A stretch of DNA of 62,482 nucleotides, the filler included, from Folioceros fuciformis (Eukaryota), in assembly GCA_049999805.1 (NCBI GenBank). It is 3 parts of 2 records of this genome, joined end to end, with 100 filler letters (N's around TTAATTAATTAA, not from the genome) between each part and the next. Parts side by side here need not be neighbours in the genome. Positions count along the whole stretch, not along the records: positions 21,363 to 50,767 come from JBNGIO010006284.1; 2 more parts are not named here. The stretch is one strand, 5' to 3'. Positions 11,533 to 59,050 of this stretch are shown piece after piece. Positions within the stretch are counted from its first letter, which is position 1. The number at the start of each line of letters is the position of its first letter. Below the pieces are notes generated by a model that saw only the letters and a list, made by a program, of their open reading frames with translations, was not told the DNA's origin and did not search any database. The position numbers and the translations under genes were made by a program.

Positions 11533-14142
11533 GTGGCATTGCCCTCTTGCTTGAATGGAACCAAACTTGCTGAGTTCTCGAGAGGCCGGAACGAAAATTC
11601 TGGTACGAGTACTATGTTTTGCGGAAGGAGCTCAGTTGGGAATCACAGCTGCCTGGAAGCTGTCACGCGGAAACCGACAGCTCTGCTTGTAGCAGCAACT
11701 TTTCTGGAACCCGCAAACAGAAATGGATTGAATCAAATCTGGTGTGGGAGGAGCTACACGGGCACGTGGGGCCAGCGCCACACACTCAGTTGTCGCGACA
11801 GACAAACTAAGAAGAACTCCTATCTAGATTTTGTTCATCCTGCTCTGGATGTGACTCATAGTGCCTCTACCGCCAAGTGGAACGTGTCGGATGACGATGC
11901 CCCTTACAGACCTGCAGGATATGAGACATGTGTCACAGCTGAGATGGTCAGCAAACTATGTGAACAGGGGTACCTTAAGGAGGCCGTCGAGTCTCTGGGA
12001 ATTTTGGTGCAAACGGGCTGTGCAATCTCTCAGTTGGTCTTCTATACAGTCCTGAAACAATGTGGGCTCCAGAAGGATCTGGTTCTGGGACGCCGTGTCC
12101 ATGCTCTCAGTGTCGAAACCGGGTATGGGTCAGAAACGTTCCTTTGCAATCACATCGTGCGAATGTATGCTTCACATGCCAAGTTGCAAGAAGCAGTGGA
12201 TGTGTTTACCCTGGTTGCTTCACCAGATGCCTTTCTTTGGTCTTCCATCATCTCTGCACATGTTAACCATGGACAGGCTAAGCAGGCCATAGAACTGTAT
12301 CATCGGATGCGGCGGTCAAGTGTGAAGCCAGATGGACATGTATTTGTAGCCGCCCTTCAGGCTTGTGCAAGGGGAGCAGACTTGAAAACTGGGCAGGAGG
12401 TGCATGCTGCCACTCTGGCCAGTGGGCTTGCGCTTGATGTGTTTATCTGTAACAGCTTGGTGGACATGTATGCAAAGTGTGGCAGCTTGGAAGACGCTCG
12501 GAGAGTATTCGACGGCCTTGGTCACAAAAATGTGGTAACCTGGAATGCCATGATCGCGGGATATGCTCAGCAGGGCTTGGGGCTCGAAGCCCTTCGTCTT
12601 TACAGCGCCATGCAAAGAGAAGTGATAGCTGACCCCACTTATGTTACATTTGTGTGCGTCCTTCAGGCTTGTGCAGTGGTGGGCACCGCAGCTTTGGAGC
12701 AGGGGAGGCAGCTTCATGCACAGATTGGAAAACAAGGGCTTCTGGCTGATGCGGTTGTAGGTTGCAGCCTGGTGAACATGTACGCAAAGTGTGGCTGTCT
12801 GGAATCAGCTCAAAGAGTGTTTGATAGGCTTCCTCAAAGAGATGTTGTGACATGGACCTCTCTGATGGCAGGATACTCACAGCAAGGCAGAGGTCAGGAA
12901 GCTCTTCGTCTTTACAATATGATGCAAGAAGAAGGTATGGCTGCACCCAATTCCGTAACATTTCTCTCTCTCCTCCAGGCATGTGCAAGTATGGGTACCC
13001 CGGCTTTGGAGAAAGGGAAGCAGCTTCATGCACACATTAGAGACGAAGGGTATGAAGCTGATGTGTTTGTAGCCAACAGTTTGGTGAACATGTACGCAAA
13101 GTGTGGCAGCATAGAAGATGCACAGATAATATTCGATGGGCTTCCTCACAAAGATGCTGTGACATGGAATTCCATGATCACAGGATACTCCCAACAGGGC
13201 ATGGAGCAGGAAGCTCTTCGTCTCTACAGAGTTATGCAAGAAGAAGGCATGGTTGCACCTGATTCTGCGACCTTTGTGTGCCTCCTGCGCGCATGTGCGA
13301 ATGTGGCAGCTTTGCATATGGGAAGGCAGCTTCATGCACAGGTGGAGGAACAAGGGCTCCAAGCTGACATACTTGTTGCTGTGAGTTTGATGAACATGTA
13401 TGCAAAGTCGGGGAGCATGGTTGACGCACAGCACCTCTTTGAGGCATTGCCGACAAGAGATATCGTGGCCTGGAATGTACTGATTGCAGGCTATACTCGT
13501 CAAGCGGACAATGAAGTGGTATTTGATCTGTTTCATAGAATGCAGGACAACGGCATACTCCCAGAGGACGTCACCTTCCTCAGTGTACTAACAGTATGCA
13601 GCCACACAGGTCTACTGAACGAGGGGCGAGAGTTCTTCGAGGCCATGATCGACCGATATGGGATCAGTCCCACTGCGGACCACTATACATGTATGGTGGA
13701 TCTCCTGGGTCGGGCAGGCCTACTCGAAGAGGCACTGGATTTGGTTAGGGCAATGCCTGTGTTACCTGATTCTGCTGTCTGGCACGCTTTAATGGGAGCT
13801 TGTCAAAAGTGGAGAAATGTGAAGGTCGGACGCCATGCGTTCGATGAGGTACTCAAGCTAGACAACGAGAATCCTGTGGCATATGTGTTGATGTCGAATA
13901 TATACACCAGCGCTCAAATGTCCAAGCAGGCTCAAGAGATGCAGGCCAGGAGAACAGCAATCAGAGCCTGGAAGGAGCCAGGGCATAGCTGGTGGACAGA
14001 CATGGAGGGACAGGTCCACTGTTTTCTGGTTGGGCATCAGGGACACCCTGAAAGTGACGATATATATGAAACGCTGGAACAGCTTGTTTTGCAAGCGAAG
14101 GAGGAAGGGTACGCGCCACTCGAACTCTGGAGATATGACTAA
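11533..14142 (+). CDS. PLS-class PPR protein with WW-type C-terminus, ending before the deaminase core
   Basis: 869-aa ORF with P-L-S triplets and E motifs; C-terminus WKEPGHSWWTDMEGQVHCFLVG..HP..IY..L..L...K.EGYAP, then stop. The track starts at GTG; the first in-frame ATG is at 11614, so the true start is uncertain. Confidence 0.95.
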   Translation: MALPSCLNGTKLAEFSRGRNENSGTSTMFCGRSSVGNHSCLEAVTRKPTALLVAATFLEPANRNGLNQIWCGRSYTGTWGQRHTLSCRDRQTKKNSYLDFVHPALDVTHSASTAKWNVSDDDAPYRPAGYETCVTAEMVSKLCEQGYLKEAVESLGILVQTGCAISQLVFYTVLKQCGLQKDLVLGRRVHALSVETGYGSETFLCNHIVRMYASHAKLQEAVDVFTLVASPDAFLWSSIISAHVNHGQAKQAIELYHRMRRSSVKPDGHVFVAALQACARGADLKTGQEVHAATLASGLALDVFICNSLVDMYAKCGSLEDARRVFDGLGHKNVVTWNAMIAGYAQQGLGLEALRLYSAMQREVIADPTYVTFVCVLQACAVVGTAALEQGRQLHAQIGKQGLLADAVVGCSLVNMYAKCGCLESAQRVFDRLPQRDVVTWTSLMAGYSQQGRGQEALRLYNMMQEEGMAAPNSVTFLSLLQACASMGTPALEKGKQLHAHIRDEGYEADVFVANSLVNMYAKCGSIEDAQIIFDGLPHKDAVTWNSMITGYSQQGMEQEALRLYRVMQEEGMVAPDSATFVCLLRACANVAALHMGRQLHAQVEEQGLQADILVAVSLMNMYAKSGSMVDAQHLFEALPTRDIVAWNVLIAGYTRQADNEVVFDLFHRMQDNGILPEDVTFLSVLTVCSHTGLLNEGREFFEAMIDRYGISPTADHYTCMVDLLGRAGLLEEALDLVRAMPVLPDSAVWHALMGACQKWRNVKVGRHAFDEVLKLDNENPVAYVLMSNIYTSAQMSKQAQEMQARRTAIRAWKEPGHSWWTDMEGQVHCFLVGHQGHPESDDIYETLEQLVLQAKEEGYAPLELWRYD

Positions 14143-25730: not shown

Positions 25731-28700
25731 TTACATGGTTTGTGGTACACACTCTGTGGTAGATAGCGTTATGCATGATTGCAAACGAGATCGCCATGAG
25801 ACTGCCCCTCCTGTGCACATGAAGACGTAACTTGATGTGGACCTCCTTTTGTCCATATCCCCTGCATAATCAACATCCGTATATCCCACGACAGATGCAT
25901 CTTCACTACCAAAACATAAGCACAAAGCTTTCGTACTATTCAAGTACCTCATAACTCCTTTTACTGCGTCCCAATGCTTCCTGCCAGAGTTTGACATAAA
26001 CCTGCTAACCACTCCCACTGCAAAGGCAATGTCAGGACGTGTAGCAATCATTGCATACATCAAACTCGCTACAGCTGATGAGTATAGAACCTTCTCCATT
26101 TCCACTTTGTCCTCCGCAGAGCTTGGGCAATCCTTGCTCGACAGTTTCACATATGGAGGCAACGGAGTACTTAATACCTTCCCCTTCTCCATATTGAAAC
26201 GTTGAAGCACCTTGTTAATGTATTTAGTCTGAGACAAGTACAACAAACGCTTATGTCTGTCTCGACGAATATGCATGCCAAGAATATGGCTTGCCTCTCC
26301 CAAGTCTGTCATGTCAAAGCGACCATTCAACTTTGACTTCAACATTGAAATCTCATCACTGTTAGTCCTAGCAATTAGCATATCATCCACATAGAGGACC
26401 AGAATGAGCAAGCTTCCATCCTTAGCTTGCTTCGTATAGAGGCAATGATCCTCATCGCTACGCTTGTAGCCTTGAGAAAGCATAAATGAGTGGAACTTGA
26501 AATACCACTCCCTGGGTGCCTGCTTCAAACCATAAAAGGCTTTTCTTTAACCTGCACACTAGATTCTCTTTGCCCTTCTCAATGAAACCCTCTGGTTGCT
26601 GCATGTATACCTCTTCCTGGAGATCACCATGCAAAAATGCCGACTTCACATCCATCTGGACAAGTTCCATGTCGAGCCTCGCAACCAGACCAAGAACACA
26701 TCGCAAGGTGGTCATTTTGACAACCGGTGAGAAAATTTCATCAAAGTCATTATCTTGCTGTTGCTTAAAACCCTTTGCAACCAATCGTGCCTTGTACTTA
26801 GGTTTGCCATAATAGGATATGTCCTTCATCTTATACACCCATTTGCATGGCAACGCCTTCTTGCCCTTAGGCAACCGAACCAACTCCCAAGTTTGGTTCT
26901 TGTGGAGTGAATTCATTTGCAATTGCATCGCTTCCTCCCACTTGTCCTTGTCAGTCACTGACGTGGCCACTTGGTAACAAGAGGGCTCCCCACAATCCGT
27001 CAGCATGACATAATCAAGAGATGCAACATACCTGTCAGGAGGACGTGAGATCCTTCCTGACCTATGAAGCAATGGCGCCTCGACCGGAGCTGGTTGCACT
27101 CTCTCCTCTCGTATAAGTGGAGGAACTTGTTCCTGCACATCACGACGTTCAACCTGCGCAGGACGGTCAAATCCATCTTCTTGAAACACCACCCGTCGCA
27201 CCTCCACAGTTGGAGTAGGCTTCTTGTGCATCTTGGTCTCATTAAAGAACACGTCATTACTACAAACCATTCTCTTGGCCTCTGGATCCCACAGACGGTA
27301 TCCCAGCTCACCAGATTCACCATAGCCAAGAAAAATACATTTCTTGGACTTGGGTGCCAACTTGTCCCGAAACTCCTTAGGAACATGGTAGTATGCCTCG
27401 CAGCCAAACACTCGTAGATGCTTGTATGACGGCTTCTTTCCAAACCACATCTCCTCCGGAACCTGCTCATCCACAGCCCTATTAGGAGATCTGTTAATAT
27501 GATGCACCGTAGTAGCCATTGCTTCGGCCCAAAATCCGTTAGGCAATCCAGAGTTTGACAATAAACTACGCATCCGCTCCTGGATGGTCCTGTTCATCCG
27601 TTCAGCCACACCATTCTGGGGAGGAGTATACGGCACAGTCAATTCTCGTTTGATTCCCTTAGAATCACAGAATGACTGGAAAGCCTTCGAGACATACTCT
27701 CCCCCATTGTTTGTCCTTAGACACTTCAGTCGGAGGCCAGATTGAAACTCCACAAGGATGACGAATTTCTGAAACACTGTCAAAACATCATCCTTTTTCC
27801 TCAAAGGATAAACCCACACCTTGCGTGAAAAGTCATCAATGAAAGTGACAAAATAAGATGCACCGCCTAACGATACAGTGGGCATAGGTCCACAAACGTC
27901 ACTGTGAACCAACTCAAGAGGTTTACTTTTGTGTTTACCTCTTGCTCCATGTGGTGACTTCGTCTGTTTCCCATACAAACAGTGCTCACACACGGAGAAA
28001 TCGGAGAAGTCAAAAGCAGGGACGTAACCAAAACGAGATAAGATCTTCATTCCTTTTTGAGACATATGTCCTAACCAACTATGCCACAAGAAAACACTTG
28101 GCTGCTCCATTACACAAAATCACATGATCCTTAACAGTGGTTACCTGAAGTGAGTACAAAGTGCCACACTTTGTTCCACGAGCTAACACAAGAGAACCTT
28201 TGGAGACCTTCCAAGAATTATCTCCAAACCAACAGTGGTAGCCAGCGTCATCCAACTGCCCTGCGCTAATCGTGCTTTTTGTCAACCTCGGAACATGCCT
28301 AACATCCTTCAATGTGAATGAAGATCCGTTGTGGAACTTCAGCTGCACATCACCAACGCCTGCAATCTCGCACATGTAGCTATTTCCAAGCCGAACACAT
28401 CCTTTCCTAGTAGCATCATAAGTGCTAAACCACTCCCTATGCGGAGTAACATGGAAAGATGCTCCAGAGTCAATTATCCAATTAGAGAATAAATGACTAT
28501 CCACGGCTATTAGTTGTGCAGAATCGAAGGAAGAAGAGATAGGAACATCTCCATCGTCAACATAATTCACCTCGTTAGGCTTGGTACTCGGACTTGCCTT
28601 GGTGTCGGTTTGCTTCTTCTCCTTTCCTATGTCCTTCTTGAACTTCTCGCAGTCCTTTCTGATGTGACCCTTCTTGTGACAATGGTAACACTCAACATTG

Positions 28701-30421
28701 TTACCACTACGAGATTTACTACGGGAAGAACTTCGCTCCTTGTATTTCCCCTTTGAAGTGGACCTTCCTCTCACCATGAGGACGTTGGAACCTTTCGAAG
28801 GTTCCATAACAAACTACCTTCTACATTTACAACGGTAAGACCACTGGCAGGAGCCGAATTACTCAGAGCTGTACGAAAGGTGTCCCAGCTCTCTGGTAAT
28901 GTGACCAATAGAAACATAGCTCTCACGGAATTATGGAAATGAGATACCTTGAGATGAGAGGTGGCTGAAAATTGTATTGAACTCGTTTAGATGATCGGAC
29001 ATCCTCGTCCCTTCCTTCATCTTCAAGTCCACCAGTTGTTTCAACCAGTACACCTGAGAAGCCGCACTTTGCTTCTCGTACAGGTCACACAACTTCTGCC
29101 ATAGCTCGTAGCTTGTGGTCTTGTCTTTCACGTTGAAGTAGACCGACTTCGACAATGTTAGCATGATGGTAGACCTAGCAAGCTCATCTAGATCCTGCCA
29201 CTCATCCTAAGTCATGCTAACAGGTTTCACTCTTAGCAACTTTATCAGCTTGATTTGCTTCTTCTGCACTAGAACATTGTACACTTGTTCTTTCCAGAAC
29301 GGAAAGTTAAATCCATCTAACTTCTCGATATAGAACATGACGTTTTCGGAGGACGTCATGATTCAAAAAACCAATGCAAATCAACTAAAAGGCTAGTTAG
29401 TAAACAGTCGGAATGTAATGTAGATTCTCAAAGTTGCCCTCATAACTTGTTCCAAATCGGATGTCCACAACTTGGGCTTCGATTGCTCACAACTGGAATG
29501 TCTCCCATCGTCCGATCGAGATCTTGACTTCCACGGTCGGGGTCAACTCGGCGCCCACACCCTCGCACTCGACGATCGCAATTTGTTCGCTTTCTTGCAT
29601 CCATCTTGCACGCTCGGTGCCTTGCAAGATCCTCGCCTCGGTAGCGCTCCACTGGCGAACGACTACCGTCTAGGTATCCCTTCCATTGGTGCCTAGTTGG
29701 TGCCCAATTGGCGCCCTACGGGCCTTGCTGGCACCAGGGTGGCACCCCGCTGGCGCCCTGCTAGCGGCCAAGTGGCACCTTGGTGCCCGGGTGGCGCCAA
29801 GTGGCGCCTTGTTGGCGCCCGCGTGGTGGCCAAGTAGCGCCGCGTTGGTGCTGAGGTGGCGCCTTGCTGGCAGCCCAGTGGCGCTGAGTTGGCGCCCTAC
29901 TGGCGCCCTACTAGTGACCTAACCCTCCTAGCTCCATCTTCTTGCCTTGTGCCTCCGCTCATTGTACCTACAATAGGCACAACCATCTTGCTCCACAACC
30001 TTTGCTCTGATACCACTTGAACGGATCATTAAAGGAGCATGGTGAAGAAGAGGAGAGAAGAAGGGAGGAGGAGAGGAGAAGAGAAAGAGAGGTCTCACAG
30101 TGTCTCTCATAGCTCTATTGCAAAGGGAGCTCAAGAGGGTATTTATACCCTCTAAAAAAGCTCCCAAGGAAGCTTCACAAGAAGCTCACAGGAAGCTTCA
30201 CAAGAGGCTCATAGGAAGCTATGCAGGAAGCTTCCCAAAGATTAGCTTAAGCTAATGATACTTAATTAAACACGAATCTTAGACTAATTACATTAGTCTA
30301 ATTAAACTTATCACACTAGTCTTATTAAACTTATCACACTAGTTTAATTAGACTAATTACACTAGTTTAATTAGACTAATCACATTAGTCTAAGCACATT
30401 GGGCTTTAATAACCCTACACA
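25731..30421 (-). mobile_element. Tnt1-like Ty1/Copia retrotransposon: 5' LTR, PBS, gag-PR-IN-RT and partial RNase H; frameshifted and 3'-truncated
   Basis: PBS at 30004-30015; gag from ATG 29359 (IEKLDGFNFPFWK); zinc knuckle CYHCHKKGHIRKDC; protease WIIDSGAS; integrase LVHSDVCGP..TPPQNGVAER; RT KARLVAKG..QMDVKSAFLHG..LYVDDML. RNase H breaks off after SCITLSTTE. Frameshifts near 28810, 28100 and 26530. Confidence 0.97.
30018..30421 (-). repeat. 5' LTR of the Copia element
   Basis: TG...CA bounded segment 2 nt from the PBS. Minus-strand TATAAATA at ~30140-30147; short GGAAGCTTCACA-type repeats and TTAGACTAAT/ATTAGTCTAA inverted repeats in the U3 part. Confidence 0.8.
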
Positions 30422-36427: not shown

Positions 36428-36817
36428 CTAGCTATTTGTAGCAAAAGGCAGGCAGCTGCACCAGTAGTACAATTGGGCAGGCTCTTTACCATCTCGGACG
36501 ACCGCAGCTGTCATGTTCAGCAACGATTCTTTGTTTATATGCTGGCTCGCAACTGGAGTCAGCAGGTCGGATATTTTAACGTTCAATGGACGACCATCTA
36601 GCTTTCCCAGGCTGATGGCCACGTTCTCCATGGAAGCTAAGCTCCCCGAGAAGTGCTGGAAGCCAGCCAACCTTGTCAGGATGGCCCCCAAGGGCAACAC
36701 CAGGAAGCTCAGAAGGAGATCTACGAACTCCTTGCCAGCTTCCATGTAGAGCACCTGCTTCGTTCGCGCGTGCCTCAAAATCCTCACAACCATCTTGGAT
36801 CCATTACCCGACGCCAT
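36428..36817 (-). CDS. DUF674 family protein, copy 1 (N-terminal part only; truncated or pseudogene)
   Basis: MASGNGSKMVVRILRHARTKQVLYMEAGKEFVDLLLSFLVLPLGAILTRL matches the DUF674 signature EAGKDFVD.L.SFL.LPLG. The frame stops at 36428, about 30 bp before an N gap. Confidence 0.75.
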   Translation of the reverse strand: MASGNGSKMVVRILRHARTKQVLYMEAGKEFVDLLLSFLVLPLGAILTRLAGFQHFSGSLASMENVAISLGKLDGRPLNVKISDLLTPVASQHINKESLLNMTAAVVRDGKEPAQLYYWCSCLPFATNS

Positions 36818-37471: not shown

Positions 37472-38358
37472 CTACGGACGATCCTTTGCAGGCCCAAACA
37501 CTTCATTTAACACATTCCGAGAAGTGAAGGACTTCGCCAGAAGTGCCAGGGCCTGCAGGGGTTGGCACGCAAAACGATGAGGTTGGCAAAGTTATCATCT
37601 TGATTCCGAGGGGAAGCGCGGATGGGCAAAACGGCAAAAGCACAAAGCAAATGCAGAGATCGAATGCCTTTCTTTCGTTTCACATTGCAGATGCTGAGAT
37701 CGTATTACCTCCTCGGCCCCAACACCAGCTTCATAGCTCTCAAGCTCTTGCATGTTCTGTATCTCCAATTTGCTCAACAAGTCGATGCTCTGTATAGTCG
37801 ACGTAGGCGAGATCTGCAAGTCATCAGTCACGATGAAGGTGGAATTCTTCTTCACGAATCCCTTCGTGCGAAGGGGTACTACCTTGTCGGTGGGCTGTGG
37901 GACCTCATTCATGTAAACCTGTCGCGTCATTGGCAATCGGCAAGAAGGACATGGAGATAAGGTCTTGGTTGTTATCCATATATTGGTACAGGCGTAGCTG
38001 CACCGGTAGTACAACTGAGGGCAAGCAGGTTTCTTTTCATCTACGGCAGCCTTCAGCTGCAACAGCGATGCTTTGCTGATATGCTCGCTCGCAATTGGGG
38101 TCAGCAGATCGGATTTCTCAACATACAATGCACGGCCATCCAGCTTTCCCACGCTGCTGGCCACGTTGGCCAAAGAAGCTAGAGTCCCCGAGAATTGCTC
38201 CAAGCTACCCAACCTTGTCAAATGGTCCCCACGGGCAACACCAGGAAGCTCAGTAGGAGATCCACAAAATCCTTGCCGGCTTCCATGTAAACCACCCGCT
38301 TGGTGCACACGTTCCTCAAAATCTTTACAGTCATCTTGGGTCCACTACCCGACGACAT
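37472..38358 (-). pseudogene. DUF674 family protein, copy 2, two exons, with a 1-bp frameshift at ~38220
   Basis: YMEAGKDFVDLLLSFLVLPVGTI, then ATT TGA where copy 1 has ATC CTG ACA. Continues in another frame with YYRC..CPSC..M..GFVK..TFIVTDDLQISP. Intron ~37708-37556; last exon ALALLAKSFTSRNVLNEVF. Confidence 0.85.
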
Positions 38359-38913
38359 CGTACCCCAGTCTCCTGCAAGCGAGCAACCCAGAAGAAACGC
38401 GAGCAAGCGAGGACTGCAAGCAACGTAAATTTGCCTCTGTGCCTTGACAATTTTGAGACGCAGCGGGCCGACTATATACCCGATCAGGTCCATCACGTTG
38501 GACAGCATTTAATTTCACACGAGCTTCCGATCACCAGATTAGATTTTCGCAGGTTTGCAACTGCAGAGTGCACATCCCTAGGATGCACAGTGTTTACTAG
38601 CCCAGCAAATTGGTTTCTCCAATTCAACTGTTAGGAATGTCATCATCAGCCATCAGCCATTGGACATCGAAGACAACGTGGTCTATGCTGCGACCAAAAT
38701 CCATCCAATGAAAGAGATGAAGTCTGTTAATTGACATCAAAACGAGATTTTCCTGAAAATTTTTACATAAATCGATTATTGTCAGGAGCTCTCAAACGTC
38801 ACAATATGAGAGGGCGCGTTCTGTTTCTCCCTGCAGCAATCGCGTGCTGATCGCGACAGAGAGTCCTGCTCGATTCCTGTCAATGGTGTTCATCAACGTG
38901 TGAGACTTCCCGC

Positions 38914-39147
38914 ATGGCAACAAAAGCCCTCTATAAGTTGCTGGAAGTATGTACTTTGTTCGGGGCGGACACCGTCGTGGTGCCATTAATGTTTTGCAAG
39001 CTGGTGAGCATTCAATGCGTGGCACAATCGTCCATCAACACGGCTGGTAGGTGTGACTACCATATTGGCCATATCCCCAACCGCTTTCACCATCGATCTC
39101 TGGCCTGTCGATTCCACAACGGGAATCGACAGGCCATTGACTTGTAA
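38914..39147 (+). pseudogene. Degenerate paralog of the secreted peptide gene at 40769
   Basis: Same start context (ttccc.cATGGC) and shared IQCVAQ.S.NT.G and FH.R.LAC.FH. Insertions, and TAA in place of a Tyr codon before the SPPC motif. The 3' flank at 39235-39380 resembles 41072-41220. Confidence 0.75.
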
Positions 39148-40768
39148 GGGAATTCACCACCATGTGCCGTAGCGTAAGGGGAAACAGTGGTAAATGAAGA
39201 TGGAGCTGCATCCAGTTCGTCATGCCTAGGCTTGGTGATATGCATTTAATTCCTGAACTTGGGGGCCATAACATGCAAGACGGCAAGGTTTATTCTGAGG
39301 CATTCACAACGGCGACGTCTTCAATGCTTGTTTTACAGCTCGAGACTATTGTGGCTGTCTTGCCATTGCTATGCTCTACCTAGTACATACTCACACACAG
39401 CAAGATTGGTAATTAAATCCTAGACTATGCACATCTGAGAGGCATTCTGCAGACCACACACAACCCGATCCAAAATCAAAACAGTTTGATGCAAAATACT
39501 AACAGGCGGTTCTGATCGCCGCTTCTTCTTAGAGCTTGTCTTGGCCACTCTCTCCTCAACAGGTCCTCGATATCGAAGCTGAAAATCGGTTTCAGGTTCG
39601 ATGTCGAGGACCCACTTGCTGTACAGCGAGTGGAGAAGCAACGAGAACGAGGAGCAGCAGGAGTAGCATACCCTGCAGTCATGCAATGCCATGTTCGATG
39701 CCCATACTACGCCCAGCTATCCAGCAGGAGCTCGAACGGAATTGGAGTGTTTAGTCCAATGTGAACAGTGGCAGCATTTAATCTTACACCAGCTTCAGAT
39801 CACCAGTAGCTTTTGCTGTTTTGTAGCTGCAAGAAGGACAGCTCTAAATGCACAGTGATTACAACCCAAGCGAATTGGTTTATCTACCGCATCGAGAGTC
39901 GGTGTGCTAAACAAGTGTGTAACCTGTTGGGATTTTCGTTAACACCCGTAGGAAATCGAAGACATCGTTCGTTGGTCTAAGTCTATGCTGCCAGGAAAAT
40001 GTCATCGTACGAAAGGGATATCTTCTAAGCAAACAAGTATGTTGAACTTCAGTCAAGAACTTCGTTCTGGAGAGTTCAAATTATGCTGAACCTTGCTGTA
40101 CAACAAGCTTGTTGTGCATTTGAATGAATTCGATCACCGACAGAGGATGGAAGCTCCTACTTGTGTGCAGAGAGATAATGGCTTCGCCAATACAGGACAG
40201 GTCGTGCTATGGACCTCCAGAGCTCCAGCAGAGCAAGAACACCTTGGAGACTGAGAAACAGCCAGTGATACAAAGACACCATAAAGTGACAAGGCTCTCC
40301 TCCCGAGGACGGGGCTGACCTCTGCTAGATGTTGACTAGCACACTGCCCGGACATGCTGGATGCCGAGTGCCAATGAGCCCATCCGCGAGGACAGGCATC
40401 GCATATCCATGTCCACAAGGAAGGTGATATGCTGTACGGTTCCCAAATTCCATTCGAAGGGTGGAGCCGAAGCCGAGGTCATCTCTCCTGTCCATTCGTC
40501 CATGTCCGCCCCTGGTCAAAGTTGAGCAACCCAAAAAGACTTGTGAAACATACAAAAGACGCCAGCAGGCAATGTGACAACAACAACAACAACAGCCTTC
40601 CAGAAGCTACTCCAGGCATTCGTGGCGGCTAACAACGCGGAAGAGAAAGGAGACGAAGCCGATAGAGAAACACGGAAGAAAACCTGGTATGTACCGTGCC
40701 GGCCTTGCTTGTCTGAATGGCAATGCCTGAGCTCATGGACGTGTTTCGTGCTGTTGCAGCCTTCCCAC

Positions 40769-40993
40769 ATGGCGAAACTGGCAACAATTGTGGTGATTCT
40801 GCTGGTCACGATGGTAGGCATTCAATGCGTGGCACAACCGTCCAGCAACACTGGTGGGTCCCAGGTGACCGACCACTTTCACCGTCGACTCCTGGCCTGT
40901 GGATTCCACAGGCCATGCTATTACGGAACTTCACCACCGTGTAACTTCCCGTACCACTGTTCCCCGCCTCCACCTCCAAGCCCCATATATTAG
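40769..40993 (+). CDS. Putative secreted Cys/Pro-rich peptide precursor (74 aa)
   Basis: MAKLATIVVILLVTMVGIQCVA (signal-peptide-like), short pro-region, RRLL, then ACGFHRPCYYGTSPPCNFPYHCSPPPPPSPIY. A candidate 5'-UTR intron GTATGT..TTGCAG at 40687-40759 ends 9 nt before the ATG. Confidence 0.7.
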   Translation: MAKLATIVVILLVTMVGIQCVAQPSSNTGGSQVTDHFHRRLLACGFHRPCYYGTSPPCNFPYHCSPPPPPSPIY

Positions 40994-41305
40994 CTTCCTG
41001 AATGTTAGACAGCCCGGTGGGGTCACGGGAGCAGCCAAAGCTGGAATTGCATCAGCTCATGCCAGGCTAGCTGATATGCATTTTGTTATTTTCCTTCGGG
41101 GCCGTAGCTTGTAAGACTGCAAGGTTTCTGCTAAGCAGTCACAAAAGCGATGCGTTCAATTCTCAATGCGACGTTGATTTGCAATTTGGGTGTGGCTGTC
41201 TGGGCATGCTGTCTACTTACGGGGTATGGTACGCCATGGCTGGCCCGCTTCCGCCAGTGCCCATGCAAACGACTGCATCACCCCTTGTAGTCTTGCACTG
41301 TCGAG

Positions 41306-43750
41306 TCAAGATGGATACCCTTTTGTCTTCATTCTGGGAGCAAGTTGCCTCAGCATGGCGTATATGGCTTCCATGCCAGGATGCCTTTTGTCCCCCACTG
41401 AAAAACTGTGCACCACTCCGTCCATGTCTGTCCACCAGCTCTGGCCTGGCTGCTTCCATGCGATGCCTTTCCTCTTTGCCTGCATCTCGAGAACGCCCTC
41501 CCAAATCTGAGCATTGGTGTATATGTTGGACATCAACACATATGCTGCGGCATCTGCCTCGTCTAGCTTCACTACTTCATTGAAAGCATGGCGACCCACC
41601 TCCACATTGCTCCATTTGTGACAGGCACCCAGCAGAGTGCGCCAAACTGCGGCATGGGGCTGGACTGGCATGGTTCTTACCACCGCAAGTGCCTCCACAA
41701 GATGGCCTGCTCGACCCAGGAGGTCCACCATGCATGAGCAATGCTCCGGGGTGGGCTTGATGCCAAACTGGCTGCTCATATTCTCGAAGTACTCTCGTCC
41801 CTTGTTCACAAGACCCACATGGCTGCACACTGTAAGTACACTAAGGAACGTGACGCTGTCAGGCTGTAAGCCATCTCCTCTCATTTGCTGAACCAGGTTG
41901 AAGACCATCTGACTGTCTCCTTGACGAGAGTATCCTGCGATCAACGCATTCCAGGAGAATCTATCCCTTTCAGACAATTCGTCAAACACCTGTTGTGCGT
42001 CACCCATGCTCCCGGATTTTGCATACATGTTTATTAAACTGGTGGCTACAAGCACATCAGCTTGAATCCCTTCTCTTTCAATCTCAGCGTGAAGTTGCCT
42101 TCCCAGATGCAAGGCTGCCACGCTTGCACAGGCTTGAAGGAGGGAAACAAAAGTTACAGAATCAGGAGAGCTGATCCCCTCTTGCTGCATACTGCTGTAC
42201 AGACGAAGGGCCTCCTGGCCCTTGCCTTGCTGGGAGTATCCTGCTAGCATGGCATTCCACGTCACAACAGTTTTCTGAGAAAGCTTGTCGAACACACTCT
42301 CAGCATCCTCTAAGCTGCCACACTTAGCATACATGTTTACGAGGCTGCATCCTACAACCACATCAGCTTGGAGTCCTCGTTCTTCAATCTGTCCGTGAAT
42401 CTGTTTCCCTTTCTGCAACGCCACAGTACCCACACTCGCACATGCTTGCAGGACGCACACAAAAGTCACAGAATCCGGAGTCACAATGGCTTCTTCTTGC
42501 ATACTGCTGTACAGCTGAAGGGCATCCTGACCCCTTAACTGCTGGGAATACCCTCCAATAATGGCATTCCAAGTCACCACATCTTTTTGACGAAGGCCGT
42601 CAAACACACGTTGAGCATCCTCCAGACTGCCACACTTTGAGTACATGTTTATCAGGTTATTGCCTATTGTCACATCATCTCGAAGTCCTAGCTCTCCAAT
42701 CTGAGAATTGAGCAGCTTTCCTGTGCCCAGAGCGGTAGTACCCACACTGGCACACGCCTGCAACAGGCACAGAAATGTCACAGAATCTGGTGGAGTGATG
42801 CCTTCTTCTCGCATGGCACTGTACAGATCAAGGGCTTGCTGACCCATGCCCTGCTGGGAATACCCTGCAATCAGAGCGGTCCATGTCACCACATCTTTCT
42901 TAGAAAGTCCGTCAAACACCCTCCGAGCATTTTCCAAGCTGCCACACTTTGCATACATGTCCACTAAGCAACTACAAACAAACAGATCAGGCTCAACCCC
43001 ACTGGACTCCACATCAGCATGCACCTGCTGACCAGTGCTCAAGTCTACTACTCGTGCACAAGCCTGCAGTGCTGCCACGAAGACGTGACCATCCGGCTTC
43101 ACACTTGTCCTGCGCATCTGATGATACAGTTGTATGGCCTGCTGAGCTTGTCCGCGTTTGACATGCGCAGCTATAATGCAAGACCATGCGAACGCATCTG
43201 GTTTCCAAACCATGGTGAACACATCCATCGCTTCCTGCAGCATTGCATGAGAAGCATACATTCGCAGAATATGATTGCACAAGAACGTGTCCGACTCATA
43301 CCCTTTCTTCACGCTCAGACCATGCACTCGCCGACCCAGCACCAAATCCTTCCTCGACACACATTCTTTCAGGACGACATGAAAGAGAGATCGAGAAACT
43401 CGACACTGTACCCGCACCAGAACTCCCAGAGCCTCAACCGCCTCCTTCACCTGCTTCTGCTGACATAGCTCGCTCACAGTTTCAGCCGTCACGCTCCATC
43501 CTGTAGGCCTGGCAGGGTCAGGACTACCCTGCAAGCTCCAGTTGGATGCAAAATCTGTTCCACCCATCTGCGTACCCAGAGCGATCGGACACATGGAACG
43601 ATTCTTCTTCCTCTTCCTCTTCCTGCTGTCCCACCTCCATGTTGGGCGGGCTGGAACTCTCACTCCAGTTTCTGTCAGCCCACCAATTTGCTGACCCTGA
43701 CCCCACGACAGGTGCATGTCCTGTCGTTGACGGGAAGAATCGAGCCCCAC
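41306..43750 (-). CDS. PLS-class PPR protein with WW-type C-terminus, ending before the deaminase core
   Basis: 814-aa ORF, close paralog of 11533-14142; ends AWKQPGQSWWTDMDGVVHSFSVGDKRHP..IY..L..L...MKTKGYPS*. Start uncertain (track uses GTG; first ATG at ~43717). Confidence 0.95.
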   Translation of the reverse strand: MGLDSSRQRQDMHLSWGQGQQIGGLTETGVRVPARPTWRWDSRKRKRKKNRSMCPIALGTQMGGTDFASNWSLQGSPDPARPTGWSVTAETVSELCQQKQVKEAVEALGVLVRVQCRVSRSLFHVVLKECVSRKDLVLGRRVHGLSVKKGYESDTFLCNHILRMYASHAMLQEAMDVFTMVWKPDAFAWSCIIAAHVKRGQAQQAIQLYHQMRRTSVKPDGHVFVAALQACARVVDLSTGQQVHADVESSGVEPDLFVCSCLVDMYAKCGSLENARRVFDGLSKKDVVTWTALIAGYSQQGMGQQALDLYSAMREEGITPPDSVTFLCLLQACASVGTTALGTGKLLNSQIGELGLRDDVTIGNNLINMYSKCGSLEDAQRVFDGLRQKDVVTWNAIIGGYSQQLRGQDALQLYSSMQEEAIVTPDSVTFVCVLQACASVGTVALQKGKQIHGQIEERGLQADVVVGCSLVNMYAKCGSLEDAESVFDKLSQKTVVTWNAMLAGYSQQGKGQEALRLYSSMQQEGISSPDSVTFVSLLQACASVAALHLGRQLHAEIEREGIQADVLVATSLINMYAKSGSMGDAQQVFDELSERDRFSWNALIAGYSRQGDSQMVFNLVQQMRGDGLQPDSVTFLSVLTVCSHVGLVNKGREYFENMSSQFGIKPTPEHCSCMVDLLGRAGHLVEALAVVRTMPVQPHAAVWRTLLGACHKWSNVEVGRHAFNEVVKLDEADAAAYVLMSNIYTNAQIWEGVLEMQAKRKGIAWKQPGQSWWTDMDGVVHSFSVGDKRHPGMEAIYAMLRQLAPRMKTKGYPS

Positions 43751-53455: not shown

Positions 53456-56400
53456 ATGGACGAGGTGATGGATGAGATGGTGGTTCAGTCCGGGCTGGAG
53501 CAGTTGGCGGTGGCCATGGCTGACGACTCGTCGGTTCCGCAGACAACGGCAGCGCTTGGGTGTGCTTCTATGGCAGATCAGGTGCCGTTTGCCATGGACC
53601 TGGATGGTCCTTTTGTTGCTCAAGATACGGGAAAGGAGGTGGAGGCTGGAGCGGGAGAGGTGAAAGAAGCGGGTCATGAGAGGGAGTATGTTGCGGTGGA
53701 GGGGGTGGGATCGGCTCGTGCCCAAGAGTCCCCAGCCTCTGTAGGTCAGGGCAGTCCTGTGCGGTCGAAAGTGACGGAAGTCGTGGAATTGCGTCCCCTT
53801 CCCCAATCGCCACCTCGTCAGAAAATTGAACCCCTAGGCCTAGTAGATTGTAGCGAGACTGTGGCAAGAGCTGGTGGTCCAGAATTTACTCTTGAAGTTG
53901 TACTTCCTACGTCTCCCTTGGCCGTGGAGGAGGACACTGAAATGCACCCTGCGCACACAGAAATTAAGCAGCCAGATGATGGCACGCCTCAAATGGAAGA
54001 AGGCTCCCTGCAGTTCGCAACCTCCGGTGAGGTCACAAGCTCATCTCCACGGCCCGATTCTGGTGCCTATCTGGTAGTGGATGGCGCCAAGTCGGAAAAC
54101 ACAGAAATAACACAGCTTCAGGCTGCTTTCGAGCATGGAGATGTTGCCCCATTGGATGATGTTGTCCAAGAACCAAGGGAGGGCACCATATCGGCGGTAT
54201 CGGAGGGTGGCGGCTACCAGTATGATGGCAGCACTGTGGAGCGGGATGCATCTGGTGTGGATTACCCGTCTAACGCTCAGGATGATGTCCAGGAGCCTGT
54301 GCTGCATGCTGCCCCAGATCTGCCGGCTGAGTCACCGTCCCCACACAAGACCGAACTGCAGCGTGAGATGGAACTCTATGAAGCAGCAGAGAGAGAGCAG
54401 GATGAGATGCAAGAGCGTCTTGCGTCTGCTCGCTCGGATCTACTTAAGGAGGCGGAGTTGCAGAGCAGTGGTGAATATCTGTCAGCTGATGGGAGGAACG
54501 AGAAGAAACGGCCTTGTGATAGTCCAGTGACCACCAGGAAGGGCAAAAGAGGGAGAAAGAATCAGTCCTCAGACCACGCCAGAGAGTTTGTCAAGGATAC
54601 TGCCAGAGAGGAGGAAGATGTTTGTTTCATGTGCTTTGACGGTGGAGATCTTGTGTTATGTGATCGAAGGTATGTTATGCTTCCGTTTCTCACACTTTTC
54701 TCTGAGTCTGGGAGGGAAACCTCTTTAGCTACTCTGATTTCTGTGTATGAGGGTAACGCACGGCTTCTTATTGGAGGGGGCTGAGAGATTCCTTCTTAGC
54801 TTGATCTGTCTCTTCTATGTGGCAATGCTCGTTGCTGCAGAACATGTCCCAAAGCATATCATCTCGACTGTATTGGGCGCGACAGGAAGTTTTTTGAGAA
54901 GAAAGGGGCTTGGATCTGTGGTAAATTACCGTTATCCCTGGTTCTTTTAGAGTGAGGCACAGAAGCTGCATCAAGGCCGTTGCCCTATGGTTGTGTGATT
55001 GGAAAAGTAAAATCGTTACTTGTTGAATACCAGTAATGGCTTCCTGAGTCTTCCTATGCTTTGACAGGTGGATGTTGCTCCTTCGTAAGCACCTGCCCCC
55101 CTGTCCTGGGTCATGCATCTAATGAAAATGTTTTCTGTGGCAGGGTGGCACTATTGCTGCGTGTGTACGAAGGCAGCAAGTTTTCAGTGCTACACGTGTC
55201 CCACAGGCTATTGCCCCACCTGTAGAAAGGACGTGGATTTCCTTTGTATCTCGAAAAGGAAAGGTCTGTGCTCAGAATGCCGACCAATTGTGAACATGAT
55301 TGAAAAGGGCGTCTCAATTAACTCCGATGGGGTAAGGCCGCCTCTGAGGACCACTAATAAGTTGTTTTTCCAAGCTCTCATCTTCGCACACTTTTCTTCC
55401 TGAGGGCTGTAAAATCATGTGCGTTTTAAGTTCTCAAATATGTTCTAATGGAATGCATGAAAACGTCTGCTATGTGCAGGTGGCTGTAGATTTCAATGAT
55501 CGGGAAACTTCCGAGTATCTCTTCAAGGAATATTGGAGGGATCTCAAGCAGCGTCTTGAAATAACCCTTCCAGAATTTGACGAGCAGGGAAAAGTTATAG
55601 AGGGTGGTGTCACAGCTATAAATGGGGCCTCTGAGTCGGAGTCAGAACATGATGATGATGACGGTGATGGTGATGATGATGGTGATGCATCCGATTCAGA
55701 CAAAGGTCAAGATGAGGAAGAGCGTAAAACGAGAGGTAAGAGCAATACAGAAGATGGTACAACGCAGGATGCTGATTATGAAGTGGCAGAGGAAGAAGAG
55801 GCTGAGGCGGACAAACCTGTGACCCGTAAGTTTGACGGGTGGGCATCAAAAGAACTTATTGATTTTGTGAAGTCCATGGACCAGGACGGTCAAAAGCCAC
55901 TAAATAATTTTGCGGTCAACAAATTACTGTGGATTCATATCAAACAACATAAACTCCAGGATCCTCGTGAAAAGACCTTGATATATTGTGACGAAAAGCT
56001 GCAGGCTCTTTTTGGGCAGAAAGAAGTCCGCCAAGTTGAAATATTCAGGCTGCTAATGGAGCACTACCCTCCTAAGGTCAGGAGACCAAGATCTGGAAAG
56101 CGTGCAGCTACTACTGCTACTTCTGTTCCTCCAGCTGTAACTGGGGATGTACTGGCTGATATCGAGAGCAATCCAGATGATAAGTCAAATAAGTCAAAGG
56201 ACAAGCGAAAGCTCAAGAAGAAAGACTTTGACAGACCAGACACAAAGGCCTATGCGGCCGTGTCCAGGAAAAACATCGAGTTAATCTATCTAAAGCGAGC
56301 GCTTTTAGAGTTTCTGCTTGATGATCCTGATTTCAGTACCAAAGCTGTTTCAGCTTTTGTGCGAATTCGGGTCCCTGGCATGACGAGCAAAACAGAGATG

Positions 56401-59050
56401 TGCTACAGACTGGTGCAAATTATTGGTAACATGTCCACTTCTGATTCCACTGGCTGATTTTGCGGGATACGTTTCTGTGCTTATCCATGCTAGCTGGGCT
56501 TAACTTAACGGTTTAGTTCTACAGGAACAAAATCACAGCCAGAGGTCTACAAGGCAGGACGGAAAATGACAGACGTTGTTCTAGAGATCCTCAACTTGCA
56601 GAAGAAGGAGGAGGTCACTGTTGACCTTGTATCAAACCAAGACTTTACTGAGGTCAGCTAGAACTGCTAATGGTCGAGACAGTTGGAATGGTGTTGATGC
56701 TTCCTCGGGAGAGTAGTGCGCATGTCTCGGCAGTCTGTGTTTCTTTGAGTCCTGCTCTGTCAGCTTTGTGATTTTATTCGTTTACAGTTTACATTCGCGG
56801 CTGTCTGCCTGATTTTTGTCACCTATAATAGGCTTCTTGAGCATGTCGCTGACATCCCTCTTTTGTCCTTTCAGGAAGAATGCCAGAGGTTGCGGCAAAG
56901 CATAAAATGCGGGTTCATAAAAGCACCTACTGTGGTATGTACTCTTTGTGGTATCGATAGACTCTTGTTCTTGAGCAAGAGCTGTGGCGAAGGTTTGAGA
57001 CTAGACACATTTTACATGATGCTCAATTGTTTGCAGGGAGAGCTAGAAGAAAAAGCCATGGCTCTTCAGGCTGCGAAGTTTAATGATGTATGTCTTTTCA
57101 GTTGGCGTACACACTCCTGCTGCCTATCACTATATCCCCACTACTTCGGTGAACTCCGGACCTGTGTTCTTCCTACCTTCTGAGATGTTTGCCTTGCTTT
57201 GCAGTGGTTTGAAACTGAGCAGGCCAGACTTACTAGCCTTAGGGACCGTGCAAGTGAAACTGGACGGAAAAAAGAATATCCTTTTGGTCGTGTCGTTGAA
57301 TTTCACGCTTATGGTAATAGCTTTGGGCATGAGTCATTGCATAGCTGGTGTTACCACTTCCTCTGTTTGCAATTATTGGTGAAGTACTCGCCTTAACCCC
57401 TTCCTGGATGCACATTGAGAGAATGTGTGGAGAAGCTGAAGGAGCTTAACAAACCATCATTCCGAGCTGCTAAACTACTAGCCAGACCTGAAGTGGCTGC
57501 CGATCCCCGTATGGATCCTGCATACGAGTCTGACTCGGACAACAAGCATAACAGTGATCCAGGTATTCATGATGAGAGTTAACAGCGGTTGATGTGGGTT
57601 GATGACCTGGACTTAATTAATATGTGATGGTTCGGTATCTTTGTGGACAGATACATGGGATAAGAGCCCTTCTCGTGGAAAAGACAAGGACGCATACGAC
57701 AATGCGGATGATAGTCATGCAATGAAAGGGGACCGGGACAGCCTCAGGTCTAAACACTCTTCTCAAGAGAAAAAAAGTAGATCCAAAGATGACCACGCAG
57801 AGCGAGCTAATGCTAAGGTTTCATTTGGTCAAACAAAGGTGTACGGTGGGGAAAGTGATGCACGTGCAGAAAGGGAGAAGAAAAGGAGCACATGGGACAA
57901 AGATCTTTGGCGAAACCAGCGAGATCAACCCCGAGAGCGGTCAGGCGTTTCCAGTTGGAAGGGAACAGAGAGGGGTGCTCCTTCATTTGACAGATGGTTG
58001 GAGAAATCTGAGATAACGTCAAGCAGTCAGTTCAACAGGGCTGATCCCAGGGTTTCATACTCTGATCCAACTATCACGGAAGAACGAGGAGAATTTCCTT
58101 ACAAGCGAGAGACACTGCTGGCTGCCTCGTCATTGATGGCCGCTGTACCAAATCTTGTTGGTGTTCCACCAGCAGCTCAAGTAACTGCGGCAGTTGGAGA
58201 TGCCTTGGAGAAGGAGAGAGCGTGGCACTACCGTGATCCCCAAGGCAACCTGCAAGGTCCTTTTAGCATGGAACAACTAAGGAAATGGAACACAACAGGA
58301 CTTTTCCCTGTTGACTTGAGGATATGGAAATCATCGCAGGATGACTCTTTGTTACTGACTGATGCCTTGGCTGGGTCAAATCTTAGACAGGTGCGAGATG
58401 TTCGAAGTTCCATTCCTCAAGTTAATCCTCTGGTGGACTACAGTGTCCAGTTGCAAGGTGGTTCCCAATTTGCCCTTGGTGGTACAACAGCTGCCGTGAA
58501 TGGTGGTGGGATGTCCAACAGGTTGGTTGAGGCATGGCCAGAGAACGGAGGAGCCACCAGTTGGGGTGGTCGAGAAGGTGCTGACCCTGTAAGCAGGGTA
58601 GCCAGCTGGGGTGCAGGCATTGGGGGCGATCGTGTAGCTCGACCTGCACGGGTGGATTGGGACGGTGCGGGCACCAGGGTGGATCCTTCTTTCCAGCCAA
58701 GGCTGAAAACTGAAGGTGGGTTGTGGTCTCCCACAGAGCCAGAGAACATGCAGAAAGAGGTGGAAGTTTGGCCGCCAACCAATAGAATGGTGGGGAATGG
58801 GGTTTGGAGTAGCAAGGGGGTTGAGAGCGTTCCTAGGAGCCCTCCTAGAAGCTCTGGAGGTTGGGGCTCCCCTCGTGACGGTGGGAGTGGAAGGCCAAGC
58901 TGGAGAACCCACGACGATGACAGGCGTGATAGTGCACGAATTAGTAGAGCGTCCAGTTATGCAACAAGAGAGGCTAGAAAAGAGACTCCCTGCAAATTTT
59001 TTAAGAACGGTTATTGCAAACGAGGGGATACTTGCCATTTTATGCATTGA
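53456..59050 (+). CDS. NERD: NERD-like zinc finger CCCH protein (PHD, SWIB, Plus3, GYF, CCCH), multi-exon
   Basis: PHD EEDVCFMCFDGGDLVLCDR|..CPKAYHLDC..|WHYC; SWIB GWASKELIDF..IYCDEKLQALFG; Plus3 FVRIRV..YRLVQI; GYF WHYRDPQGNLQGPFSMEQLRKW; CCCH CKFFKNGYCKRGDTCHFMH. Confidence 0.93.
57276..57413 (+). other. U12-type AT-AC intron
   Basis: 5' site ATATCCTTT, branch point GCCTTAAC at 57390-57397, 3' AC. Splicing gives in-frame GRKKE|LRECVEKL. Confidence 0.93.

Follow-up and report, generated by a model that had tools for sequence, protein, structure and literature searches.

Introduction

Mature peptides of the RALF family are about 50 amino acids long, and the YISY motif near their N-terminus is not universal among RALFs. 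The precursors are characterized by a signal peptide, a dibasic site and four cysteines, with loops that the available part of one source quotes as C21-29 and C41-47 (PMC11240277). The cut made by S1P in Arabidopsis RALF23 is reported as INRRIL/ATRRY (the slash marks the cleaved bond), and the accessible text of the same report gives RxxL or RxLx as the motif that defines substrates of SBT6.1/S1P or SBT3.5 (PMC13082318). For extensins the motif is Ser-Hyp4, the Ser-Pro run being the site of prolyl hydroxylation and arabinosylation in the available portion of a further source (PMC5371791). Finally, the accessible text of a preprint states that, up to that time, angiosperms were the only plants in which lineage-specific secreted peptide families had been identified (bioRxiv 10.1101/2024.05.13.593875).

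The locus described here contains a 74-codon open reading frame, ORF A, with the outline of a small secreted precursor, and a second, related copy upstream, copy B. The best explanation, which we hold at about even probability, is that ORF A encodes a secreted pre-pro-peptide and is a fast-evolving gene restricted to its lineage, whose tandem partner, copy B, has decayed.

Results

Genomic context of the locus

The window, by which is meant the whole stretch of Folioceros fuciformis DNA that was analysed (62,482 nt), is nuclear land-plant DNA. The genes and elements surrounding the locus are as follows.

8328-10670 and 11533-14142, plus strand: intronless PLS-type PPR genes with E motifs (Pfam)
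25731-28807, minus strand: Copia-type LTR retroelement, with pol across three overlapping ORFs (Pol_BBD; gag-pre-integrase/rve/RVT_2 N-half; RVT_2 C-half)
36455-36767 and 37595-38308, minus strand: two DUF674-like segments (50-62% protein identity) of an internally repeated or tandemly duplicated DUF674 gene
41306-43750, minus strand: convergent neighbour of ORF A, an intronless PLS-type PPR gene with E and E+ motifs (Pfam; its 3' end lies on contig 2 of sequencing run X1, see below)
55417-59050, plus strand: SWIB/MDM2, Plus-3, GYF and CCCH zinc-finger gene with a ZC3H19-like architecture (Pfam)

The split of the Copia pol over three overlapping ORFs means that the element contains frame breaks. 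The convergent PPR gene ends with ...KGYPS, at the point where a DYW domain usually starts, and 40990-41305, past its stop, contains no DYW-like frame.

ORF A resembles a pre-pro-peptide in its anatomy

ORF A runs from an ATG at 40769 and is translated as MAKLATIVVILLVTMVGIQCVAQPSSNTGGSQVTDHFHRRLLACGFHRPCYYGTSPPCNFPYHCSPPPPPSPIY (74 aa), ending with TAG at 40991-40993. The putative parts of the precursor, and a palindrome that lies across two of them, are listed below.

40769-40993, plus strand: ORF A, candidate pre-pro-peptide of 74 codons and TAG (reading-frame inspection)
40769-40834, plus strand: signal-peptide-like residues 1-22 (MAK, a 15-residue h-region and QCVA), with the predicted cut between A22 and Q23 (hydropathy, heuristic rule, AF2 helix 3-21)
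40835-40894, plus strand: polar pro-region, residues 23-42, with RRLL at its end (40883-40894); a putative cleavage site from the sequence
40895-40990, plus strand: putative mature 32-mer with four Cys and an SPPPPPSPIY tail (sequence; AF2 gives it no confident fold)
40893-40915, no strand assigned: near-perfect palindrome of 23 nt (22/23) spanning the RRLL/ACGFHR codons (sequence; absent from copy B)

Residues 1-22 consist of MAK, LATIVVILLVTMVGI and QCVA, and are followed by Q23. A single lysine thus precedes a 15-residue hydrophobic core that carries no charge, and QCVA/Q fits the -3/-1 rule; the signal peptide was judged by a heuristic that takes the h-region, the charge and the (-3,-1) rule into account. 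Kyte-Doolittle values (9-residue means) are 2-3.4 across residues 1-14 and negative from residue 19 on. Residues 39-42 are RRLL, which matches the RxxL subtilase motif, and the next residue is Ala. The C-terminal 32 residues, ACGFHRPCYYGTSPPCNFPYHCSPPPPPSPIY, end in the SPPPPPSPIY tail and contain cysteines at residues 44, 50, 58 and 64 (C-x5-C-x7-C-x5-C), equivalent to mature positions 2, 8, 16 and 22. AF2 run on the single sequence gave a mean pLDDT of 52.4, with values <50 over residues 21-67; an N-terminal helix (3-21) and a weak helix (33-44) were predicted, and elsewhere there was no confident fold.

The start context of the ATG is favourable (A at -3, G at +4). The frame stays open further upstream to a GTG at 40574, giving a frame of 139 aa. 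An earlier, sequence-only reading of this DNA had described the 74-aa ORF with its hydrophobic N-terminus ending in CVA-Q, the RRLL and the 32-residue C-x5-C-x7-C-x5-C peptide, and every letter of that description holds; its statement that the ORF is concealed within a longer GTG-started frame is likewise confirmed, the frame being open from 40574.

Two further elements were observed on inspection. On the plus strand, 40572-40597 contains a minimal AUG-stop uORF (ATGTGA, 40572-40577), then an (ACA/CAA) repeat and next a purine-rich stretch; should transcription of the sense gene start further upstream, this would have the look of a leader. The palindrome at 40893-40915 reads TGGCCTGTGGA T TCCACAGGCCA, and on its letters could form a hairpin or a protein-binding site, as a candidate role only.

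Copy B and the tandem duplication

With ORF A as query, tblastn of the window located a single related stretch, copy B, which lies 1.8 kb upstream (E 1.4e-9), and no other related exon. The copies share an ORF and three alignable blocks.

38914-39147, plus strand: copy B, a homologue of ORF A 77 codons long, with a degenerate N-terminus, HRSL for RRLL and no tail (sequence alignment)
38531-38619, plus strand: upstream block of copy B, equivalent to 39800-39884 (74% identity), the far edge of the tandem duplication
39002-39118, plus strand: block within the ORF, equivalent to 40812-40910 (70% identity)
39220-39328, plus strand: 3'-flank block, equivalent to 41057-41163 (75% identity), 3' of both ORFs

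Copy B shares the start context CTTCCCRCATGGC with copy A and has an ATG ORF in the homologous frame. Between well-aligned anchors the copies differ in length by 45, 18 (3+15) and 15 (13+2) nt, all of which are net multiples of three; three independent intervals would all be in frame by chance about 1 time in 27. The frame of copy B is open across 21 extra codons, and in both copies frame 0 is the sole stop-free frame of the six. When substitution alone was simulated under neutrality, 13-28% of 20,000 trials (20-30% divergence) kept the ATG and remained free of stops over 47 codons. By a post hoc estimate, the state of copy B under pure neutrality would have a combined probability of roughly 1 in 100. 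The preservation of the ATG context, and of the frame across in-frame length changes, argues for a frame that was once coding, as far as can be judged from the alignment.

The remainder of copy B is degenerate. Its N-terminus is broken up by charged residues, HRSL stands in place of RRLL with the loss of RR, Cys2, Cys4 and the proline tail are missing, and a 13-nt insertion and a compensating 2-nt change flank a stop codon. The sequence-only reading had looked to homologues that keep RRLL and the four cysteines; one homologue, copy B, was found, and it keeps neither RR nor all four Cys. The putative mature peptide is the least conserved part between copies A and B.

Substitutions between the copies were counted over all 56 aligned codons (pS 0.363, pN 0.292) and over the 33 best-aligned core codons (dS 0.214, dN 0.261), and dN/dS is about 0.75-1.2. 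Differences at codon positions 1, 2 and 3 number 11/36, 7/35 and 5/35, so that third positions change least. The non-coding 3' flank (75%) is as conserved as the ORF block (70%), and the longest run of identity between the copies, GCATTCAATGCGTGGCACAA (20 nt), takes in synonymous sites. At the sequence level the substitutions look neutral-like and without protein-level constraint.

Copy B is oriented divergently to the DUF674 gene, and a DUF674-like N-terminal exon (MSSGSGPKMTVKILRNV...) is seen near 38300-38400 on the minus strand. The presence of a DUF674 paralogue inside copy A was considered and rejected, as tblastn places DUF674 pieces only at 36455-36767 and 37598-38308.

A spliced antisense transcript crosses the start of ORF A

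Three public sequencing runs were compared with the locus. Run X1, in the form of unstranded contigs from which rare forms have been dropped, contains about half of the words of 40400-41300; in runs X2 and X3 the locus words are almost absent. No run recorded as RNA was seen to contain the locus. That X1 represents RNA is judged from a canonical CT..AC joint and from its patchy cover. Over 38400-41400 it yields two contigs, both identical to the window. Contig 1 joins 40042-40510 to 40683-40808, and contig 2 (40998-41435) covers the last part of the convergent PPR gene and 308 nt past its stop. Contig cover is absent over 38400-40041 and over 40809-40997, which takes in most of ORF A, and this has no bearing on expression.

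40042-40808, minus strand: spliced contig, antisense transcript T1 (X1 contig 1), overlapping the first 40 nt of ORF A
40512-40683, minus strand: canonical GT-AG intron of 172 nt (CT..AC joint, cut +1, in X1 contig 1)
40687-40759, plus strand: candidate 73-nt GT...AG intron ending 9 nt before the ATG (from the sequence; unspliced in X1 contig 1)

The minus-strand intron has the sites CAG/GTTTTC ... TTTGACCAG/G. A 6-nt overlap at the joint permits seven cut positions, one of which is canonical (CT..AC). The joint might instead stem from the deletion of 172 bp in the genome or from template switching at a repeat of 6 nt, CCTGGT, but both are unlikely, because only one of the seven possible cuts is canonical, and that is the one observed. 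Contig 1 shows that a spliced antisense RNA crosses the start of ORF A; as the contigs are unstranded, silence of the sense strand does not follow from this. The 73-nt intron that had been proposed for the 5' UTR of ORF A at 40687-40759 does possess its GT...AG letters, but the one contig that spans it still contains it unspliced. The antisense 5' splice site (40683/40684) lies 3 nt from the plus-strand GT of this proposed intron, inside the palindromic ACCTGGT.

T1 (40042-40808) has no convincing ORF of its own. Its minus-strand ORFs of 55 aa and 94 aa gave EGF_LRP2 as the sole Pfam match (E 0.024, 15.1 bits against a cutoff of 30), which is not credible. A search of 38300-41500 against Rfam at E up to 1 returned no matches, and thus no known snoRNA or miRNA in the antisense intron. 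T1 may represent a natural antisense RNA, or else it may belong to a long 3' UTR of the PPR gene.

Families and homologues

Pfam-A hmmscan at E up to 10 gave no families for ORF A, for the 139-aa frame or for copy B. A word-indexed search of proteins of 40-130 aa produced one word-sharing candidate and none that scored at E up to 10, and there were no PDB sequences at E up to 10. HMMER over 1.84 billion representative proteins returned no true homologue of ORF A and no RALF; its three matches at E up to 0.001 are to long proteins built of tandem repeats, in which weak matches add up from repeat to repeat, and were rejected as spurious. Among metagenome contigs there were 305 pattern matches and no confirmed relatives. 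In the ESM Atlas the whole ORF A protein gave a top score of 0.80 with an unnamed 72-aa streptophyte cluster, which is a lead only, and residues 23-74 gave no usable match to named clusters.

The protein libraries set the scale for these results. An exact look-up found none of seven window proteins (ORF A and six other ORFs) in the protein collection; the proteome of the species is therefore probably outside it, and the absence of ORF A is uninformative. The best relatives of the SWIB/Plus-3 ORF, which are spread over mosses, liverworts, lycophytes and a fern or ferns, share 38-46% identity with it (of 7999 proteins scored, 17 had E up to 1e-10). As the nearest relatives of so conserved a gene are this distant, the lineage is barely covered by the libraries; the groups in which they occur point to a non-seed plant, in keeping with a hornwort. 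The null homology searches thus exclude a detectable relative in well-sampled plants and say little on the plant's own lineage. No family with this architecture was found in the literature, as far as the available text of the sources extends. Provisionally, two of the outcomes that the sequence-only reading had named as counting against it are what was found, on thin data: one run, one decayed paralogue and lineage-poor databases.

Chance expectation and codon usage

Three of the 217 ATG ORFs of 50-160 aa in the window are positive by the signal-peptide rule. In 200 order-3 Markov simulations the mean number of signal-like ORFs was 1.47 of 218, and 36 of the 200 reached three. The combination of a signal-like start, R[RK]xL, an even number of cysteines (at least 4) after it and SPPP was found in 0 of 200 simulated windows, and a signal-like ORF with two of the three extras (R[RK]xL, Cys, SPPP) in 1 of 200; the criteria were set after ORF A was known, so that these figures overstate significance and the feature set is to be called unusual and not significant.

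The codon-usage log-odds of ORF A (-0.087) falls under all 45 of the true-coding chunks of 74 codons, and 172 of the 217 chance ORFs score at or above it; this is weak evidence, the training having used 3515 codons of window genes with a PPR-dominated composition. A synonymous-only codon score (-0.003) does not discriminate: 59 of the 217 chance ORFs score as high or higher, and 20% of the 45 coding chunks score as low or lower.

Discussion

Gene or non-functional frame

The reading of ORF A as a gene is favoured because its anatomy is coherent and unusual, its start context is good and copy B preserves both ATG and frame. It is favoured also because the locus lies in transcribed DNA and because RRLL-Ala mirrors the RALF23 cut, in so far as the accessible text describes the latter. 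The same reading is weakened because the substitutions between the copies look neutral, the flank is equally conserved and the mature part is lost in copy B, and further because the contig across the ATG is spliced on the minus strand, codon usage is, on weak evidence, unlike that of coding chunks, and there is no homologue outside the window and no confident AF2 fold beyond the N-terminal helix. As for the precursor interpretation offered by the sequence-only reading, the anatomy stands, but copy B, without RR, all four Cys or the tail, and the missing constraint between A and B do not bear it out.

The principal alternative is that ORF A is non-functional, being a chance-open or recently dead frame in tandemly duplicated, antisense-transcribed intergenic DNA. 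The function of the segment, if any, would then be at the DNA or RNA level (minus-strand promoter or UTR, or antisense non-coding RNA), and the peptide-like features would be coincidental products of six-frame scanning. We regard this as a serious possibility of somewhat less than even probability. It would account for neutral-like change between A and B that leaves flank and ORF equally conserved, for synonymous sites within the 20-nt identical run, for a copy B that is broken in the 'mature' part and for a spliced minus-strand transcript that passes through the ATG and the proposed 5' UTR. The codon usage of ORF A, which is not coding-like, and its lack of homologue and family point the same way, and a window of equal size should yield about 1.5 signal-like ORFs by chance. 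Against this, the full feature set occurs in none of the 200 simulations and the start context of ORF A is good. In copy B, moreover, the ATG and frame survive three net in-frame differences and 21 extra codons, which we infer, post hoc, to be an event of about 1 in 100 if neutral. The reading of ORF A as a gene and its reading as a non-functional frame remain close.

Proposed processing of the ORF A product

If ORF A is a gene, translation would start from the well-placed ATG at 40769 and residues 1-22 would lead the chain into the ER, with a cut after Ala22. An S1P/SBT6.1-type subtilase may then remove the 20-residue polar pro-region after RRLL, by analogy with RALF23 (RRIL/A) in the available text of the report on its cleavage (PMC13082318). 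The released 32-mer would close two disulfides, the most economical pairing being two short C-x5-C loops, and the Ser-Pro5 tail might be hydroxylated and arabinosylated in the manner of the extensin motif. The site of action of the product would be the cell wall or apoplast, where it would serve as a ligand or as an antimicrobial or wall-binding peptide. The cleavage at RRLL, the disulfides and the Hyp-arabinosylation are inferred for the ORF A product.

A more detailed proposal, which is tentative and which we consider rather unlikely as a whole, is that a young lineage-specific gene has fused a RALF-style design (signal peptide, RRLL cut of the S1P type, two-disulfide core) with a single arabinosylated Ser-Hyp5 tail of the extensin type. 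This would give a small ligand or antimicrobial peptide with a glycan or wall-anchoring handle, encoded beside a decaying twin and under an antisense RNA that is possibly regulatory.

If true, ORF A would represent a lineage-specific secreted peptide family outside the angiosperms, from which alone such families were known until then by the available text of the preprint (bioRxiv 10.1101/2024.05.13.593875). It would be a natural chimera of the two main plant peptide-signal classes, the cysteine-rich and the proline-hydroxylated/glycosylated, and the tandem pair would provide a compact case of the birth and decay of a small gene. If the gene is not real, the locus is a caution that antisense-transcribed intergenic DNA can contain a frame in which a signal peptide is combined with a protease motif, paired cysteines and a run of prolines.

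Comparison with known peptide systems

The small secreted peptides collected by the P. patens pipeline are like ORF A in having an ORF of <200 aa and a signal sequence but neither a TM domain nor a known motif, to the extent that the available text describes them. The P. patens candidates differ in having transcripts and 1KP homologues, of which ORF A so far has neither. PROSCOOP and GLV/RGF/CLEL precursors are also small and secreted, with a basic-hydrophobic subtilase motif upstream of a C-terminal peptide, as described in the accessible parts of the sources. However, their peptides are short, linear and Cys-free with conserved motifs of their own, none of which is present in ORF A, and no family model matched.

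The likeness of ORF A to extensins and other HRGPs lies in one Ser-Pro5-Ser-Pro stretch, judged against the available description of the extensin motif. In contrast to these proteins, ORF A has a single SPPPPP and one SP with no repeat array, and there is no Pfam extensin match. The Tyr cross-link motif of extensins was not recognised in ORF A. An origin of ORF A as a leftover piece of a bigger gene for a proline-rich or extensin-like wall protein, or as one of several exons in a longer gene, is improbable. The single C-terminal Ser-Pro5, the frame open upstream to 40574 and a 5'-splice-site-like GT at 40814 in A, with a matching place in B, would suit such an origin. However, no Pfam match was obtained with the 74-aa or the 139-aa frame, the one SP5 motif lies outside any repeat array, tblastn of the window finds no related exon but copy B, and homologous start and stop codons in both copies bound a short unit.

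For the preferred reading, of ORF A as a gene for a small secreted precursor, a close comparison is with RALF23. In both, as far as the available text on RALF23 goes, a signal peptide and a pro-region are followed by RRxL right before the mature part, with Ala at P1'; R39-R-L-L42 of ORF A fits the RxxL substrate motif of S1P/SBT6.1 in the accessible definition and is a predicted cleavage site. The four cysteines of ORF A could close two short loops, a further likeness to RALFs in the part of the source that describes these. Unlike RALFs, ORF A is without YISY and without a match to the Pfam RALF model, and it has a mature part of 32 aa, a Cys spacing of x5/x7/x5 and an extra Ser-Pro5 tail, set against the available RALF description. 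The sequence-only reading had likewise set ORF A apart from RALF, in a family that it did not recognise, and this is upheld by the absence of any Pfam family at E up to 10, the lack of YISY and the different Cys spacing. That ORF A belongs to the RALF family as a shortened and much diverged member, as its signal peptide, its RRxL before the mature part and its four cysteines able to form two loops might suggest (PMC11240277 and PMC13082318, in their available parts), is very improbable, given no Pfam family and no YISY, a 32-aa mature part with x5/x7/x5 spacing against the quoted loops C21-29 and C41-47 (PMC11240277, accessible text), and no RALF among the HMMER results over 1.84 billion representatives. 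As judged from its letters, ORF A resembles a RALF precursor on paper and is not a member of that family.
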